In this document: one piece after another, positions 1 through 32,092 of the stretch
How the letters are laid out: every line of letters begins with the position of its first letter
Position numbering within the stretch: position 1 is the stretch's first letter
Sequence record: OR352952.1
DNA from: Escherichia phage AV122
Length of the DNA: 64,000 nucleotides
Reading direction: 5' to 3' (one strand)
Translations under genes and position numbers: made by a program
Notes under the pieces: model-generated
The model's database searches: none
The model's input: the letters and a program-made list of their open reading frames with translations, nothing else
What the model was told of the DNA's origin: nothing

Positions 1-2314
<2,314 letters not shown>

Positions 2315-24892: not shown

Positions 24893-25857
24893 TGTATTCT
24901 TTAGAGGAATTTAATAATCAAGCAATAAACGCAGATTTCCAACGTAATAATATGTTTAGCTGCGTTTTTGCGACAACTCCATCAACTAAAAGCTCTTCGT
25001 TGATAAGTTCAATTAGCAACTTTTCTTATAATAACTTGGGCCTAAATTCAGATTGGTTAGGATTGACTCAAGGTGATATTAATCAGGGAATTACCACGCT
25101 AATTACTGCTGGCACACAAAAACTGATAAGAAAATCAGGGGTTAGTAAATATCTTATTGGTGCCATGAGTCAACGTACAGTTCAAAGTTTATTAGGCTCA
25201 TTTACAGTTGGTACATATTTAATTGACTTCTTTAATATGGCATATAACTCATCTGGATTGATGATATATTCAGTAAAAATGCCAGAGAATAGATTATCCT
25301 ATGAAACTGACTGGAACTATAATTCTCCTAATATTCGTATAACTGGGAGAGAATTAGACCCTTTGGTTATTTCATTTAGAATGGATTCAGAAGCATGTAA
25401 CTATCGTGCAATGCAAGACTGGGTTAACGCTGTTCAAGACCCAGTAACTGGATTACGCGCTTTGCCACAAGATGTCGAGGCAGATATTCAGGTTAATCTT
25501 CATTCTCGCAATGGATTACCTCATACTGCGGTGATGTTCACAGGATGCATTCCAATATCAGTGAGCGCTCCTGAGTTATCATATGATGGAGATAACCAAA
25601 TAACTACATTTGATGTTACTTTCGCTTATAGAGTCATGCAGGCTGGAGCAGTTGATAGACAAGCTGCCCTTGAATGGCTTGAATCTGCTACTATAAATGG
25701 TATTCAAAGCGTTCTCGGAAATAGTGGAGGTGTTACTGGACTATCTAATTCGCTTTCACGACTTAGTAGATTAGGGGGAACTGCAGGAAGCATTTCAAAT
25801 ATTAATACTATGACAGGAATTGTCAATTCGCAAAGTAAAATATTAGGAGCAATATAA
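24892..25857 (+). CDS. 54: baseplate tail-tube initiator gp54
   Basis: 321 aa; synteny. Confidence 0.85.
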   Translation: MYSLEEFNNQAINADFQRNNMFSCVFATTPSTKSSSLISSISNFSYNNLGLNSDWLGLTQGDINQGITTLITAGTQKLIRKSGVSKYLIGAMSQRTVQSLLGSFTVGTYLIDFFNMAYNSSGLMIYSVKMPENRLSYETDWNYNSPNIRITGRELDPLVISFRMDSEACNYRAMQDWVNAVQDPVTGLRALPQDVEADIQVNLHSRNGLPHTAVMFTGCIPISVSAPELSYDGDNQITTFDVTFAYRVMQAGAVDRQAALEWLESATINGIQSVLGNSGGVTGLSNSLSRLSRLGGTAGSISNINTMTGIVNSQSKILGAI

Positions 25858-25861
25858 CAAT

Positions 25862-25879
25862 GGGGACCTTTCGGTCCCC
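25862..25879. terminator. bidirectional stem-loop between gene 54 and the minus-strand alt block
   Basis: GGGGACC-TTTC-GGTCCCC with T-run between convergent stops. Confidence 0.65.
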
Positions 25880-25885
25880 ATATTT

Positions 25886-26176
25886 TTATTTACGGAATGA
25901 AATAAAAGCAGCAACTGAAGCAACTAAACTGTCTTCAATATAAACTTCAATTTTTACCGGAGCTTCTGACTCAAATTTACCTGTTACTACACCCTGAAAA
26001 ATACTTTCAGTCTGTTCTGGCTTTGAAAAATTTTCAGAAGGAAAAATTCCGAACTTTTTATCTGTTCCAAAAATTTTGATAAATTCATCGTAAACTGCTT
26101 CATTAAAAGCATTATCAGCAGGAATAACGCCTTCAACTACAAGTTCTTGACCTAAAAAGCGCAAAGAAGATTTCAT
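25886..26176 (-). CDS. hypothetical protein downstream of alt
   Basis: 96-aa ORF; own early-type promoter and SD GAGGAA. Confidence 0.55.
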   Translation of the reverse strand: MKSSLRFLGQELVVEGVIPADNAFNEAVYDEFIKIFGTDKKFGIFPSENFSKPEQTESIFQGVVTGKFESEAPVKIEVYIEDSLVASVAAFISFRK

Positions 26177-26184
26177 TTTGTGTT

Positions 26185-26237
26185 CCTCATGTTATGTCAG
26201 TAAGACTACTATAACACAACACGAGGGACTTGTAAAC
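26185..26237 (-). repeat. 53-nt exact direct repeat, copy 1 (early promoter plus leader)
   Basis: Identical to 42052-42104. Confidence 0.85.
26208..26237 (-). promoter_or_regulatory. early promoter (GTTTAC-17-TGtTATAGT) for ORF 25886-26176
   Basis: -35 GTTTAC overlaps the alt TAG stop; extended -10 TGnTATAGT; part of the 53-nt repeat. Confidence 0.6.
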
Positions 26238-28294
26238 TACATTTTGAACTTTTTAGACATTCCGTTGATGTTAACCAAAGAAGCCAAGATTTGAGAAACT
26301 TCGTTTTCCTCTTCTTTTGATTCTTCTACAAGGAATTGATTAAATCCAGCCATTGGACGAACTTCACCAGTTTCCATTAGATGGTCGCCATCATATACCG
26401 ATTCCTCTAATTGTTCAGAAGGAGGAACGATTGTACCTTCTATTAGATACTTGTTATAAGCAGTTTCTTTCATAAAGTACGTGCTCACTTTATTAATCTT
26501 CAGTAAAATTCCACGTGGTAGAATAACTTCAGCTTCTGATGGAAATCCTGATAAATGACCTGGAACGATAACTTTGATTCGCTCAGCTCCTTTAATTACC
26601 ATACCCACGCTAGTTTCAGCATCTTCATTAGCATATGTAGAATGACTACCCATATGCATCAAATCTTCTGCATCAACGGAACCTTCTCCTTCACCAGAAA
26701 ATACTGCGCCGGAATCATCTAGAGCCATATAGTTTTTACCATGCTCACCGAAGATATTTGGTTTAAGTGATGTCGATACGAAGTTCTTGAAATAGAACAT
26801 TTTATTTTCAATATTGTGACGCAAAGTTTTAAAGGTAACTTCTTGTCCACGGTAAAGTGTAGTTCCTGGAGGAAGAACTGAACCTTTAGCGAATGCAGAA
26901 TCCAGCGTCTCAATATGTTTAATAGCTCGTTCCATATATTCTTCACGGGTAGAATCTGGTTTACCCAAAAGGAACGAGTTCATTTCAACATATGAATCTG
27001 CGCAATAATCTTCAATTACGTCAGATTCAGCCTGAGTTAATCCTTTTGGAGTTACTTCAGTACTTGCATATTCATATGCCTGAGCGGCAGATTCATTAAT
27101 CAATTTATAAATGCCATTCATGACAAATTGAATAATAGCTGTCTTTTCATCTGGCGTAGCTTTAGAACCTTTAACTAAATCATTGATAATTTTCTTAATA
27201 ACATCAAAACTATTAGAAATATTAATATCAGCAAGATCGCTTAAAATTTTATCAGTTTTATAATCAAAGAATTCTTTATTCTTTAAATATTCTTGAGAAC
27301 CTTGATATGTTATATCGCTCTGCAACTTGATAGATGGATCGCGTAAACGTGCATGGGCTAATGCAATATGATTTCGGAAACTTTCTAGTTCATAATCGTT
27401 AGATTTAAAACGAGAAGCACTTCTCATACCGCCGATAGCTCCTTTGCCGAAGTTTGAACCAATCTGAATAACGCCAGAGTTCATTGGTCCTTCTGCTTTA
27501 TATACCGGAACTTTAGATTCAAACTCTTGATATTTCTTAGCAGCGAAGCTATCACCCTGAAGTGAAGCATCAACAGTAGAATATTGAGCTTGTGCTGCTA
27601 ATCGACGACTAATTTTAGTTTTCTGAATAACAGCTTGATCCGTACGCTTATCATTTTCTAAAGCAATAGAAGCAGCAACTGCGACAGCTTTAGGAACAGC
27701 ATTACCTGTTTTAACGTCTACATAAACATCACCAACCTTTGATTCAACTTTTGTGAATAACTCAGTTGAAATAGGAGGTACACCTGGAATGTCTTCTAAA
27801 TTGGCATTTTTACGGTAAACCATAATATATGCATATTTCTTATCATAGTCCCAGATTTCCTTTAAAAGAACATATCGACCTGCTCCTTTAGTACGTACTA
27901 AACGGTCAGCAATAACTTGCATTTGACGAGCAGCGCCATTTGTTTTACTCTTTAGTACGCGGAATAAGCATGCATCAATTTTATACTGTTTCATTGTTTG
28001 AAGAGCAGTATCAAAAACAGCATTAATGACGCCAATTGGATTTCCACCCAAGTTTTTAAGCTTAACTAATGATAGTTTCTCATTAACACCTATCATTACG
28101 ATATGCATCATTTTGTCGCCTGGCTTAACGTTTTTATTCGTATCACCGCCAGAGGTGTATGTACAAAATCTAAATCCAGGAAGCACGCTTTCTTCACCGG
28201 CTTGAATAGCAAAAATTTGAGGTATTTTATGCTTAGGATTTAAGTTAACAACCGGCGCCGAAGCGCCGTCAAATAATTCTGTAATAAGTTCCAT
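26237..28294 (-). CDS. alt: Alt-family ADP-ribosyltransferase (paralog A, 685 aa)
   Basis: N-terminal MELITE capsid-targeting-like motif; R-S-E motifs (LYRGQ, FVSTSL, EAEVILPRG); SD AAGGA. Confidence 0.85.
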   Translation of the reverse strand: MELITELFDGASAPVVNLNPKHKIPQIFAIQAGEESVLPGFRFCTYTSGGDTNKNVKPGDKMMHIVMIGVNEKLSLVKLKNLGGNPIGVINAVFDTALQTMKQYKIDACLFRVLKSKTNGAARQMQVIADRLVRTKGAGRYVLLKEIWDYDKKYAYIMVYRKNANLEDIPGVPPISTELFTKVESKVGDVYVDVKTGNAVPKAVAVAASIALENDKRTDQAVIQKTKISRRLAAQAQYSTVDASLQGDSFAAKKYQEFESKVPVYKAEGPMNSGVIQIGSNFGKGAIGGMRSASRFKSNDYELESFRNHIALAHARLRDPSIKLQSDITYQGSQEYLKNKEFFDYKTDKILSDLADINISNSFDVIKKIINDLVKGSKATPDEKTAIIQFVMNGIYKLINESAAQAYEYASTEVTPKGLTQAESDVIEDYCADSYVEMNSFLLGKPDSTREEYMERAIKHIETLDSAFAKGSVLPPGTTLYRGQEVTFKTLRHNIENKMFYFKNFVSTSLKPNIFGEHGKNYMALDDSGAVFSGEGEGSVDAEDLMHMGSHSTYANEDAETSVGMVIKGAERIKVIVPGHLSGFPSEAEVILPRGILLKINKVSTYFMKETAYNKYLIEGTIVPPSEQLEESVYDGDHLMETGEVRPMAGFNQFLVEESKEEENEVSQILASLVNINGMSKKFKM

Positions 28295-28297
28295 GAT

Positions 28298-30391
28298 TTA
28301 TCCTTGAACGAACTTGTAAGGCATGTTTGTAATATCTATGCAAGACGCAATAATTCCAAGAGATGATTCTACTTTCTGTTTAACGTTTGATGAAACAAAT
28401 GATGCAAAGTCAACTCTGTCTTCTATTTCAATATCACCTGTCATTGCAACTACTTCGCCGGTTTCCATTAAATGGTCTCCATCATAGATTACCGATTCGG
28501 TGAGCTCTTCCGTGGTCATAACTTCAGCTTGAATGAGTTTTGTATTATTAGACGTGGTTCCGTCATTATTAGAAGCATCAGTTATTTTATTAACTTTGAC
28601 CATCAATCCGCGCGGTAGAATAACTTCAGCTTCTGTTGCTATTCCGAGACTTCCTGGATATACAACATTAACTTTATGAGCTCCATCAATTGCCCATCCT
28701 ATTTGAACTTTAACGTATTCAGGATTTTCTTTATACGCTCTTATTTCGTTTGGATTAATAGTTATTCCTTCTTCATTTTTATCAACTGTCAATTCATTAC
28801 GAGCTTCTGGTTCTAAAAGACCAATACCAGCATGTGTAATTCCAAAACGTCCAAAAATGATAGGAGTTAAAGAAGTAGATACAAAATTTCTGAAATAGAA
28901 CACTTTATTTTTAACTAGTGCTTCGTATATAGGAGCAGTCATACTTTGAGCACGATAAACTGTGATGCCTTCCGGTATGCGGTCACCATTTTCAAAAGCT
29001 GAATCTAAGTTATTTATAGCAGATTCAATTTCTTTTTCACTCATTACATCATATCGTTCTGGATTGTAACGACCTAAAAGAAGATTATTGATGTCAGTAT
29101 ATCCTGAACCACAATATTCTCTAATGCCACGCTTTTGTGATGGAGTATATTTAGAACCATCGCGGGCAATAGTAATATCAATCATTGGACCAGCACCAAT
29201 TCCAGAAAAACTGTAAATCATTCGTTTGAGGAATTTAGTTTTTGCTGCGTTCCAGGAATTTTTAGTTATTTCTTCCCAGACTTCATCTGGTTGTCCTTTA
29301 CGATTTTTATTATGATTAGCAAGCCATTTATCTTTATAATCTTCAAAGAATTGATTTACAGCTGCTGCGTATTTCTCTAAACATTTTATTGAAGTAGTTG
29401 GTTCATTTTTAATTGCATTAAAAATTACTTCTTTAATTTTTTCTGAAACTTCACCGACTTGACTCATTGGAAAGAATTTATAATCATAGTGAAGTTCATC
29501 TGCCGTTCCTTCAGCAATAATTTTTGCTGCCTTTGTTTTAGAAGCTAATGAATTAATTCCAATTTTCATTTCTTCTGCTTCGGGAATTAAAGGTGCAGTA
29601 GCTGGTTTATTAAAATTAGCTGCTGTAGATTCATACTTCTGGAATAATTCACTTTCAAATCTAGAAGATTCCAATGACTGACTTTGTGCAATTGCTCTAC
29701 GGGAAATTTTAACTTTAACGATTACGGCTTGGTCAGAACGTTTATCATTTTCTTGTGCAATAGATGCAGCAATTGCCTCATTTTTAGTTACTTGAGCTCC
29801 AGTATCTTTATTGATATAAACATCACCGACCTTCGATTCAACTTTAGTAAAGAGCTCGGTGCTAATTTCCGGAACTCCTGGAATGTCTTCTAGTGATACA
29901 TTTTTACGATGTATAAGAATATATGCATACTTTTTATCGTAATCCCAGAGTTCCTTAAGAAGGACGTATCTGCCACCTGAACGACTGCGGATAAGTCTAT
30001 CAGCAATAAGTTGAATTTGACGAGCTTGACCAGCAGTTTTAGACTTAAGAATACGAAGCATGCAGGCATCAATTTTATATTGACGCATTGTTTGCATTGC
30101 AACAGTAAAAACTGAATTGATATAATTAATCGGGCTTGGACCGAGACCTTTTAATTTAGCAATTGAACCTTTAGCAGTTAATGTAAAAGGAACAATATGC
30201 ATCATTTTATCGCCCATCTTTAAATCGCGATTAGTATCACCTCCAGATGTATAGGTACATAAACGAAAGCCTGGTTGTTCAATTGCGTCATCAACATGAA
30301 CTGAAAAAATTTGTGGTATTTTCTTCTTTGGATTTAAGTTTGTAATCGGAAGAGTAGTATCTTCGTCAAATAATTCTGTAATGAGTTCCAT
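28298..30391 (-). CDS. Alt-family ADP-ribosyltransferase (paralog B, about 697 aa)
   Basis: N-terminal MELITELFD; R-S-E motifs (VYRAQ, FVSTSL, EAEVILPRG); TATAAATA late promoter 24 nt upstream; start taken as second ATG (30391). Confidence 0.85.
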   Translation of the reverse strand: MELITELFDEDTTLPITNLNPKKKIPQIFSVHVDDAIEQPGFRLCTYTSGGDTNRDLKMGDKMMHIVPFTLTAKGSIAKLKGLGPSPINYINSVFTVAMQTMRQYKIDACMLRILKSKTAGQARQIQLIADRLIRSRSGGRYVLLKELWDYDKKYAYILIHRKNVSLEDIPGVPEISTELFTKVESKVGDVYINKDTGAQVTKNEAIAASIAQENDKRSDQAVIVKVKISRRAIAQSQSLESSRFESELFQKYESTAANFNKPATAPLIPEAEEMKIGINSLASKTKAAKIIAEGTADELHYDYKFFPMSQVGEVSEKIKEVIFNAIKNEPTTSIKCLEKYAAAVNQFFEDYKDKWLANHNKNRKGQPDEVWEEITKNSWNAAKTKFLKRMIYSFSGIGAGPMIDITIARDGSKYTPSQKRGIREYCGSGYTDINNLLLGRYNPERYDVMSEKEIESAINNLDSAFENGDRIPEGITVYRAQSMTAPIYEALVKNKVFYFRNFVSTSLTPIIFGRFGITHAGIGLLEPEARNELTVDKNEEGITINPNEIRAYKENPEYVKVQIGWAIDGAHKVNVVYPGSLGIATEAEVILPRGLMVKVNKITDASNNDGTTSNNTKLIQAEVMTTEELTESVIYDGDHLMETGEVVAMTGDIEIEDRVDFASFVSSNVKQKVESSLGIIASCIDITNMPYKFVQG

Positions 30392-30414
30392 CATATCCTC
30401 TCTAGTGTTTATTC

Positions 30415-30422
30415 TATTTATA
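30415..30422 (-). promoter_or_regulatory. late promoter TATAAATA for Alt paralog B
   Basis: Minus-strand TATAAATA 24 nt upstream of ATG 30391, after hairpin 30428-30445. Confidence 0.65.
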
Positions 30423-30427
30423 AAATT

Positions 30428-30445
30428 AAAGGCCCGAAGGCCTTT
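30428..30445 (-). terminator. stem-loop upstream of the Alt B late promoter
   Basis: AAA-GGCC-CGAA-GGCC-TTT. Confidence 0.5.
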
Positions 30446-30632
30446 AATAATCTATTGGTAAGAGAGTACGATATATTTCAAACTTTGGACCTTTTTCATA
30501 GGCATCAAATGTTTCTGTGAATTTATTATAAGCATATGCATCTATAAATTCAATCGTGATTTGTGATACAGAAGTAGAAACATCTCCACCTTCTTTTTGA
30601 GCCACGACAATTGTTTCTAAGTAAGCTTTCAT
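30444..30632 (-). CDS. hypothetical small protein between gene 30 and alt
   Basis: 62-aa ORF; ATGA overlap with gene 30 stop. Confidence 0.45.
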   Translation of the reverse strand: MKAYLETIVVAQKEGGDVSTSVSQITIEFIDAYAYNKFTETFDAYEKGPKFEIYRTLLPIDY

Positions 30633-32092
30633 AAACCAGTTACCTCATGAAAATCGCCAAATACATCTTCGAACGTATTAGCTTTAGTTTTATCTTCACG
30701 TAAACGAATCGCAATCGGAAGAAATAATTTAACGTAATCAGTGCGGCCATCAGATTTTAACCAACCGTTGCATTCGCACTCTAGAATTTTTCCAATATAA
30801 TAATTTTGGTTTTCCATAATGCGAGTACGGTCAAGTTCATGCGATTTTACACCAGCTTTATCTTTTAAGCCTGAACCAGCATTTACTTTAATTTTTCCAC
30901 ACTCTGACTCAAGAACGAAACCACCTGCTTTAGTAGGGTCTTTACGGTGAGGATAAATTCCTACAATTTTTAAATCAACATCAATTACTTCTTTAAATTT
31001 ATAAAGATTTTTTGAACGAGCATTTTCCCATAATCCATCGATATTTTTGAGAATAATACCTTCAAGACCTTGGTCAATATACTTTTTGTAAATTACCTTA
31101 GCTTCATCTAGGTTATTTACTACCTGGTTTTCAATTAAAATTACTTTGTCATATCCTGATGTCATTTGTTCTAGTTTAGAAAAACGTACATCATATTTTA
31201 AACGAAATGCTGGAAGACCATATATTTCTACTAATGGAACATAGTCCCAGACCTGAAACTTCATGCATTGTGCTTCTTTTTCAGAAATGGTTCCCTTTAA
31301 AGATTTATTAGCGATTCCATTAGAAGCAGTACGTGATTCAGCTACTTCGGCGAATTCTTTAGCTTTACTAATTTCAGGATAAGCATCAAAAAGAAAATCT
31401 AGGCCTTCTGGTTCCTTTTCAACTTGCTCATGGTATACCAATTCGCCATCAATTAACACACCTTCTGGATGAATCTGGCGGGCTTCAGCAGTCATTTTAA
31501 TTAACTCTTCCTTAAGAAGATCTAATCCTAGATATTCATTACCAGCTCGTGATAAAAGACGAACATCATCTAATTCATCACCTCTGACTTCAGCAAAGCA
31601 CCGAGCTCCATCAGCTTTTAATTGGGCAAAGGCTGGAAATTTGATATTCTTATTAATGCCTTTTTCATCATAAGAACTTGCCAGCATTTGAGGTTGTTCA
31701 GGAATTAAACCTGGCCAAACTTTGTTTGCAATAGATACTGATGCACCGCATTCAAGGTCTCGCATCATCACCCGACGCAAAACTTCAACATCATCTTTTT
31801 TACCGTCAGCAATATATCCAGTTAATTCCTCAATTGCCGTATTTCCGGTCAATTTCCGAGTAGCTAACGTGAATTCAATGAAGTCAAGCATATCGGTAAG
31901 AGTCAACATTCCAAAACTCTGGGTAGCAATACCAGGTTTAGGCCATTTCTTGATATAATACTGTAACCCACGAGAATAAGTCAGACGATATACTCGTTTA
32001 AGCAATTCATTATCTTTATTCTTTTCAAGAATTGCTTGCTTCTGCTTAGTTGAACCAATAGATGCTATTTCGTTCAGAATTTTAAGAATCAT
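30629..32092 (-). CDS. 30: ATP-dependent DNA ligase gp30
   Basis: 487 aa as T4 ligase; adenylation motif KADGAR. Confidence 0.95.
   Translation of the reverse strand: MILKILNEIASIGSTKQKQAILEKNKDNELLKRVYRLTYSRGLQYYIKKWPKPGIATQSFGMLTLTDMLDFIEFTLATRKLTGNTAIEELTGYIADGKKDDVEVLRRVMMRDLECGASVSIANKVWPGLIPEQPQMLASSYDEKGINKNIKFPAFAQLKADGARCFAEVRGDELDDVRLLSRAGNEYLGLDLLKEELIKMTAEARQIHPEGVLIDGELVYHEQVEKEPEGLDFLFDAYPEISKAKEFAEVAESRTASNGIANKSLKGTISEKEAQCMKFQVWDYVPLVEIYGLPAFRLKYDVRFSKLEQMTSGYDKVILIENQVVNNLDEAKVIYKKYIDQGLEGIILKNIDGLWENARSKNLYKFKEVIDVDLKIVGIYPHRKDPTKAGGFVLESECGKIKVNAGSGLKDKAGVKSHELDRTRIMENQNYYIGKILECECNGWLKSDGRTDYVKLFLPIAIRLREDKTKANTFEDVFGDFHEVTGL

Follow-up and report, generated by a model that had tools for sequence, protein, structure and literature searches.

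The locus described here lies in a stretch of 64,000 nucleotides (nt) of Escherichia phage AV122 (OR352952.1), referred to below as the window. Two large open reading frames (ORFs) stand in tandem on its minus strand, copy 1 upstream and copy 2 downstream, and both encode members of the Alt family of ADP-ribosyltransferases (ARTs). Alt is the textbook example of an enzyme that is carried in the virus particle and reprograms the host as the phage DNA enters; to our knowledge, nearly everything that has been learned about it comes from phage T4. The gene order in the window is of the Tequatrovirus type (gp48, gp54, alt.-3, the two large ORFs, alt.1 and DNA ligase), and the locus is 98.1% identical to that of RB14, 97.0% to that of T6 and 96.6% to that of T2, so that RB14 is the nearest of the three. 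It is close to certain that both genes are functionally intact.

A sequence-only reading of this DNA had proposed two adjacent minus-strand Alt paralogs of 685 and about 697 amino acids, and the analysis agrees with it. Copy 1 is 697 or 698 amino acids long, according to which of two ATG codons starts it, copy 2 is 685 amino acids long, and the two share 41% identity in a BLASTP comparison (E 4e-163), a paralogy far above chance. Pairwise alignment gives 56-76% identity over residues 1-250, which the same reading had described as alike, falling to 12-22% between residues 250 and 450; the ART core stands at about 40% and the tail at 30-41%. Inside the ART core, the stretch from S-T-S to E-x-E is only 16% identical between the copies. 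Both proteins match phrog_802 end to end (residues 1-696, E 4e-273, and residues 1-685, E 1e-256, on a profile of 674 positions), and Pfam ADPrib_exo_Tox (PF03496) matches copy 1 with E 1e-37 and copy 2 with E 6e-20, while no NCBIfam family is matched by either copy.

The set of R, S-T-S and E-x-E residues is the signature of arginine-specific transferases. In copy 1 it appears as YR480AQ, S505-T-S507 and E587-A-E589 and in copy 2 as YR482GQ, S507-T-S509 and E587-A-E589, and these residues are unchanged throughout alignments of 21 sequences; the complete R-S-E triad claimed earlier for both proteins is present, and neither copy lacks its catalytic residues. The ADP-ribosylating turn-turn (ARTT) differs between the copies, GIATEAE against GFPSEAE, and reads APSNEME in T4 Alt. 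The YR and ExE motifs of copy 1 align with the catalytic motifs of CdtA, and a sequence search of the PDB gave weak matches of copy 1 to CdtA and iota Ia only and no match of copy 2 at E <= 0.01. On the predicted models, the C-terminal domain of both copies is a C3/VIP2-type ART fold. The AlphaFold model of copy 2 (predicted local distance difference test score, pLDDT, 75.9) shows an N-terminal alpha/beta region (residues ~1-200), an all-helical centre (~202-468), an ART beta-core (480-622) and a tail of low confidence. Despite the strong sequence difference, the models of both copies have the same all-helical centre with a near-identical helix pattern. The claim that the central regions differ markedly is therefore right for the sequence but not for the predicted helical layout. 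The coordinates of these parts are collected in Table 1.

Table 1. Features of the tandem alt locus and its surroundings; positions are those of the window and residue numbers those of the respective protein.
Feature	Residues	Positions	Strand	Remark
Copy 1	1-697	28298-30391	-	697 amino acids; begins at the second ATG (30391) with MELITELFD, like T4
Copy 1, longer form		28298-30394	-	698 amino acids from the first in-frame ATG at 30394
Copy 1, N-module	1-235	29687-30391	-	
Copy 1, helical centre (predicted)	about 240-415		-	
Copy 1, ART domain (predicted)	about 413-628	28508-29155	-	
Copy 1, C-propeptide (predicted)	633-697	28301-28495	-	
Copy 1, catalytic residues	R480; S505; E587; E589	28952-28954; 28877-28879; 28631-28633; 28625-28627	-	
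Copy 2	1-685	26237-28294	-	685 amino acids
Copy 2, N-module	1-235	27590-28294	-	
Copy 2, helical centre (predicted)	about 240-415		-	
Copy 2, ART domain (predicted)	about 416-622	26429-27049	-	
Copy 2, C-propeptide (predicted)	632-685	26240-26401	-	
Copy 2, catalytic residues	R482; S507; E587; E589	26849-26851; 26774-26776; 26534-26536; 26528-26530	-	
Copy 2 segment missing from T4		26257-27946	-	about 1.69 kb; blastn of the T4 locus against the window
Spacer ATC		28295-28297	-	3 nt, from copy 1 stop TAA to copy 2 ATG
Late promoter motif TATAAATA		30415-30422	-	T4-type; about 20-23 nt upstream of the copy 1 start
Hairpin AUUAAAGGCC-UUCG-GGCCUUUAAU, then U-rich stretch		30425-30448	-	overlaps the alt.1 stop codon
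alt.1	62 amino acids	30444-30632	-	full-length match to PF24647 'Phage blade protein', E 2e-28
Sigma-70/T4-early-like promoter TTTACA-17 nt-TATAGT with TG		26208-26236	-	10/12 consensus matches only; abuts the copy 2 stop, upstream of alt.-3
alt.-3	96 amino acids	25886-26176	-	DUF5498 (Pfam), phrog_1739; immediately after copy 2; closes the block
Bidirectional terminator hairpin		25860-25881		after alt.-3

In T4, Alt is a head-core protein present in about 40 copies per head (PMC5694885; PMC9026906). The gp21 protease cuts it after ITE-6 and LTE-619, the latter site having been found by mass spectrometry in 2017 (PMC5694885). Both window proteins begin with MELITELFD, in which the earlier reading had recognized a prohead-protease site, and the MELITE/L start equals the documented ITE-6 site and propeptide of T4 Alt (PMC5694885). 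A second gp21 motif, LTE-632 in copy 1 and LEE-631 in copy 2, stands directly before a conserved S-x-YDGDHLMETGE, so that an LxE about 55-65 residues from the C-terminus is seen at a homologous position in both copies. Cleavage at both ends would leave products of 626 amino acids (70.1 kDa) from copy 1 and 625 amino acids (69.1 kDa) from copy 2, which would be hard to tell apart on a gel; applied to T4 Alt, the same cleavage rule returns the 68.2 kDa published for its mature form. Copy 2 has the conserved N-module and the propeptides, and from this analogy with T4 Alt its packaging is likely.

The N-module itself is confined to this family. A search with it against 1.84 billion representative proteins found only 69 clusters; in all of them the module is N-terminal, and nearly all of these proteins have 600-712 amino acids. 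When ten length outliers with the module were sampled, seven matched PF03496 (P0122, a fragment of 461 amino acids, only below the curated cut-off). Two divergent, shorter N-module proteins, P0183 (485 amino acids) and P0184 (541 amino acids), have 25-26% identity and no Pfam match; P0183 aligns weakly to the ART region by BLASTP (TLY.., ..SCSL, ..EIVLPRG), and no ART match was found in P0184 by BLASTP or in P0186, of 221 amino acids. We also considered that the N-module is a general packaging adaptor fused to varied effectors, in the manner of polyvalent or MuF-like proteins. The search does not support this option, as an ART follows the module almost always and only 69 clusters hold it.

The expression signals at the locus include the two that had been pointed out before, a late promoter and a separation of the genes by 3 nt. 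The T4-type late motif TATAAATA is followed by the Shine-Dalgarno sequence GAGAGGA and then by the copy 1 start codon. It is enriched in the window, with 19 occurrences observed against 8.3 expected and no shuffle out of 100 reaching 19, and at alt it is the same in T4, T2, T6, RB14 and PYPS2T, with CATAAATA in the Dhakavirus dhaeg. At the junction, copy 2 starts 3 nt after copy 1 and lacks a separate promoter at its 5' end; an AAGGA lies 6 nt upstream of its ATG, within the 3' end of copy 1. T4, T2, T6 and PYPS2T have an identical junction, and the spacing in dhaeg is also 3 nt. Such a layout suggests that copies 1 and 2 are co-transcribed and that their translation is coupled. A second TATAAATA was seen inside copy 1 (29011-29018, minus strand, gene nt 1374), about 720 nt ahead of copy 2. 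All the RB51-type alleles examined (window, T2, T6, RB14, P922 and UFV11) have this internal motif and the T4-type alleles (T4 and PYPS2T) do not, and it could be a late promoter for copy 2 or a chance occurrence; as the alleles are too alike, its conservation is uninformative.

Which of the copies corresponds to T4 alt was a question left by the earlier reading, and the comparison answers it with the upstream gene. Judged from position and alignment, copy 1 is the positional ortholog of T4 alt, with a different centre and catalytic cassette. Overall, copy 1 is 70-72% identical to T4 Alt and copy 2 only 37%. By region, the identity of copy 1 to T4 Alt is 98-100% over residues 1-250 and 92-96% in the tail, against 27-47% in the centre and about 60% in the ART core (27-62% over the span of centre and ART). 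The synonymous divergence (dS) between copy 1 and T4 alt is 0.16 in the N-module and 1.15-1.58, that is saturated, in the centre and ART. Since the cassette of centre and ART is a different, old allele, the known targets of T4 Alt are not simply transferable to copy 1, and in both window copies the catalytic cassette is substantially unlike that of T4 Alt.

In the T4 reference, alt (682 amino acids, NP_049811) is followed by alt.-1 (61 amino acids, NP_049810) and alt.-2 (67 amino acids, NP_049809), which are near-identical to residues 1-56 and 62-117 of copy 2 (phrog_23015 and phrog_15247). The deletion in T4 begins at about codon 117 of copy 2 and ends 7 codons short of its stop codon, the ends are joined at a 9-nt near-repeat (CTAAAGAGT / CTAAAAAGT), and the loss of 1 nt in an A-run frameshifts the remaining stub into the two ORFs. 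The note in the T4 record treats alt.-1 and alt.-2 as a duplicated beginning of alt; the alignment identifies them instead as the truncated relic of a full-length paralog. The possibility that the tandem is simply the standard T4 layout with characterised products, which the sequence-only reading had allowed for, fails at this point, as T4 has a deleted and frameshifted stub in place of copy 2.

Copy 2 is under strong purifying selection. Among six phages, its ratio of nonsynonymous to synonymous rates (dN/dS) is 0.01-0.05 at dS 0.13-0.27. When copy 1 is compared with copy 2, the N-module is the most constrained part, with a dN/dS of 0.20 against 0.46-0.64 elsewhere. Copy 1 occurs in the genus as two allele classes, the type of RB51, T2, T6 and the window (at least 90% identity, 316 records) and the T4 type (60-80%, 212 records), and the T4-type allele is also found beside an intact copy 2, in PYPS2T and W143. 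The window copy 1 is 100% identical to the Alt of ECO4 and 99.7% to that of RB51.

The history of the two catalytic parts was followed in neighbour-joining trees (100 bootstraps) of 19 proteins from seven genera. The tree of centre and ART divides at 100% bootstrap into two clades. Tequatrovirus copy 1 with both its alleles, Dhakavirus copy 1 and the single Mosigvirus gene form the first, Tequatrovirus copy 2 and Dhakavirus copy 2 the second. As each clade is shared with the Dhakavirus copy at the same position, the catalytic lineages are older than the genera. The window copy 1 cassette groups with Dhakavirus copy 1 (100%) and not with the T4 allele. Along the gene, the cassette at 28508-29700 (minus strand) is nearer to Dhakavirus (dhaeg, L009) than to T4 (L001), and the flanking N- and C-modules are near-identical to T4. 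This pattern points to either an old cassette polymorphism or an exchange between genera. In the N-module tree, Tequatrovirus copy 1 stands with copy 2 (89%) and the N-modules group by genus. Recent gene conversion between the N-modules of this genome was considered and rejected, with dS about 1.5 and a longest near-identical stretch of 31 nt, at the 5' end; the grouping by genus therefore reflects older homogenisation or co-evolution with the head. In other words, the N-module appears to follow the phage genome in which it lies, either because it must fit the head of that phage or through old homogenisation.

Two phages hold a single, chimeric alt. In SCS4 (L003, 3501-5561) it consists of residues 1 to about 150 of copy 1 and the rest of copy 2, and in KAW1E185 (L005, 3501-5558) of residues 1 to about 610 of copy 1 and the tail of copy 2, with a crossover near the conserved EVILPRG-coding repeat. 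From these joints, the pair has evidently collapsed in both phages through unequal recombination.

Taken together, the picture that we favour, with a probability of about 0.7, is that of a late operon for two head-packaged, gp21-trimmed and injected arginine-type ARTs with different target preferences. In this model the two-gene operon would encode two paralogous Alt-family mono-ADP-ribosyltransferases of shared build, each with an N-module of ~235 amino acids carrying the ITE-6 propeptide, a helical centre, a C3/VIP2-type ART and a C-propeptide after an LxE. Both would be made late and, by analogy with T4 Alt, would enter the prohead core through their shared N-terminal and possibly also their C-terminal parts. 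The gp21 protease would then trim both ends, giving the two mature proteins of about 70.1 and 69.1 kDa, which would be injected with the DNA. In the new host they may use NAD to ADP-ribosylate host proteins ahead of any phage gene expression. Different, possibly overlapping sets of host targets are the most likely outcome, because the copies show no sequence relationship in the centre, the S-T-S-to-E-x-E stretch or the ARTT turn; for distinct targets as such we see about even odds.

Several points weigh against this model. The (L/I)xE motifs are frequent, with 7-11 per protein, and a motif match alone is weak evidence of cleavage; the cleavage argument rests for this reason on position and homology and not on the motif. 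That the N-propeptide of six residues is sufficient for targeting Alt to the head is a matter of inference, and no study of copy 2 by virion proteomics, enzymology or genetics turned up in our literature searches. The same helical centre is predicted in both models, and divergent sequence need not mean divergent targets. T4 also does well with no copy 2, SCS4 and KAW1E185 hold one chimeric gene, and Alt is non-essential in T4 (PMC9026906). From T4, the chimeric phages and this non-essentiality it follows that the second enzyme is dispensable, at least on laboratory hosts.

Another explanation is a redundant dosage pair, in which copy 2 is packaged, is active, shares the targets of copy 1, RNA polymerase alpha among them, and gives a higher dose or a backup. 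The common architecture, the shared helix pattern of the predicted centre and the identical catalytic motifs would fit such a pair, as would the tolerated loss of copy 2 in T4 and the collapse to one gene in SCS4 and KAW1E185. Yet the identity is as low as 12-22% in the centre and 16% in the S-T-S-to-ExE stretch that determines specificity, the ARTT turns differ, and the two catalytic lineages have been separate since before the split of Tequatrovirus and Dhakavirus (100% bootstrap). Each copy is under strong purifying selection, and redundancy usually ends in loss or homogenisation, whereas here the N-modules group by genus and the catalytic parts do not. We therefore regard simple redundancy as unlikely.

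It may also be that copy 2 is a late ART that stays unpackaged and acts in the producing cell, for example against a defence system or on proteins of the phage or the host late in infection. The case for packaging is indirect, and a late promoter fits an intracellular role equally well, but copy 2 retains the entire N-module of 235 amino acids, which is seen only at the N-terminus of Alt-type proteins and is the most constrained part between the paralogs (dN/dS 0.20 vs 0.46-0.64). Copy 2 also keeps the MELITE/L propeptide in the same form as T4 Alt, together with the LxE and YDGDHLMETGE site, and we consider this role improbable, with odds well to its disfavour. Finally, the idea that copy 2 is a decaying duplicate, a relic or pseudogene in progress comparable to the alt.-1/alt.-2 stub, draws on its absence from T4 and the nearest relatives of T4 and on records that label it 'hypothetical protein' or 'apparent insertion in alt.-2', but it is essentially refuted by the intact ORF of 685 amino acids in about 400 records, the dN/dS of 0.01-0.05 with ample synonymous change, the invariant catalytic residues and the orthologous copy kept by Dhakavirus.

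Returning to two injected enzymes, a tentative extension, which we hold to be somewhat doubtful, is that copy 2 is a second virion-delivered ART with targets unlike those of Alt, perhaps a host protein involved in defence or stress, or some part of the translation or RNA machinery. If this were true, most T-even phages, T2 and T6 included, would inject two distinct 'first-strike' enzymes and T4 would have lost one of them, a loss that would account in part for the host range or defence sensitivity in which T4 is known to differ from T2/T6. The second enzyme would then have been missed for decades, with T4 as the reference and proteins of 70.1 and 69.1 kDa co-migrating on gels.

Around the operon, further signals and neighbouring genes were found. 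The hairpin at the alt.1 stop has a folding energy of -14.5 kcal/mol (z = -4.3; none of 200 shuffles was equally stable in the RNA fold), is identical in T4, T2, T6, RB14 and PYPS2T, is kept in the Dhakavirus dhaeg and is annotated as a terminator in KAW1E185. From its position just ahead of the alt late promoter, it is likely to terminate the upstream early/middle transcripts. No site resembling a terminator was found from the end of copy 2 to alt.-3, so the late transcripts from the alt promoter probably end at the bidirectional hairpin after alt.-3. An Rfam search over 25000-31500 gave no match. For the T4 homolog of alt.-3, mutants with a C-terminal extension have been reported to escape the CmdTAC defence by blocking CmdA degradation (PMC11618068). 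In PYPS2T (L004, 242-1534), one ORF of 1293 nt stands where T4 has genes 30.2 and 30.3.

The tandem alt arrangement is not a discovery; it is already annotated, was noted earlier and is the norm in the genus. The alt duplication was mentioned by Nolan et al. 2006 (PMC1524935) and Jin et al. 2014 (PMC4177764), and a genome note of 2026 describes two Alt paralogs with 43% identity in a Tequatrovirus and suggests functional divergence (PMC13600099). With the locus of 4.9 kb as query, 542 phage records were matched; coverage reaches 80% or more in 367 of these, with 95-99% identity. Of the segment that T4 lacks, 80% or more is present in 401 records, against 498 that hold the flanking gp54/alt.-3 region, so that about 80% carry it. 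An intact copy 2 with at least 90% identity occurs in about 400 phage records, and the intact pair is present in T2, T6, RB14 and RB51, while T4 and its nearest relatives lack copy 2. The name given in RefSeq to both genes is 'Alt-like RNA polymerase ADP-ribosyltransferase'. Elsewhere copy 2 is labelled alt.-2 (RB14, ACP30838), 'apparent insertion in alt.-2' (T6, AXN58232) or 'hypothetical protein; alt.-1' (T2, AYD82791); it lies at L010 5744-7801 in T2 and at L011 6302-8359 in T6. In the GenBank records of T2 and T6, these T4-centred labels hide an intact ADP-ribosyltransferase gene.

To the earlier descriptions our analysis adds the selection on copy 2, the ancient lineages of centre and catalytic part shared with Dhakavirus, the cassette alleles of copy 1 and the chimeric collapse. 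It is T4 that is atypical, as the usual state in the genus, T2 and T6 included, is two different transferases of the injected type under strong selection. 'Alt' in the T-even phages can be viewed as a small family in which a conserved packaging frame carries exchangeable catalytic cassettes; the upstream gene has two old, interchangeable cassette alleles, and the catalytic modules predate the genus. Work on host take-over and anti-defence in T-even phages should not treat 'Alt' as a single enzyme with the targets of T4 Alt, and the T4-type and T2/T6-type phages offer a natural experiment on copy 2.

Compared with known systems, the window is one more instance of the annotated Tequatrovirus pairs and shows no substantive difference from them; the second alt of RB14, RB51, T6, T2 and about 400 Tequatrovirus records is the copy 2 gene, with 90-100% identity and the same tandem layout. 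T4 Alt and copy 1 are alike in their slot between alt.1/ligase and alt.-3/gp54, the hairpin, the late promoter and the start, as well as in the four-part architecture, the R/S-T-S/ExE residues and the ITE-6 and LTE motifs. T4 alt.-1/alt.-2 share with copy 2 the place and the 3-nt spacer and differ in that the T4 frame is split and truncated. Adjacent full-length Alt paralogs by gp54/gp48 are also found in Dhakavirus (JS98 'alta', dhaeg), Gaprivervirus P896, Biquartavirus B614/44RR and the Acinetobacter phages ZZ1 and Ac42, and the pairs of other genera have 30-50% identity to the window proteins. Dhakavirus resembles the window in lineage order, the 3-nt spacer and a similar promoter, whereas Gaprivervirus has the two catalytic lineages in reversed order and the two copies of Biquartavirus group with each other. 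In Krischvirus Phi1 (L014, 4653-5477), alt is followed by a stand-alone ADP-ribosyltransferase ORF of 274 amino acids, which is not a full-length paralog. Toxins of the C3/VIP2/iota-Ia/Vis type with an R-S-E triad have a C-terminal fold and catalytic motifs like those predicted for the copies, at only 14-25% identity, but they are bacterial exotoxins with other delivery modules and have neither the Alt N-module nor gp21 propeptides. The internal proteins IPI-III of T4, which have a capsid targeting sequence, are head-core proteins with a short N-propeptide that gp21 cuts after (L/I)xE, and they enter the host together with the DNA (PMC5694885; PMC9026906); they differ in being small, non-enzymatic and unrelated in sequence, and to this plan Alt adds an N-module of 235 amino acids and a C-propeptide.

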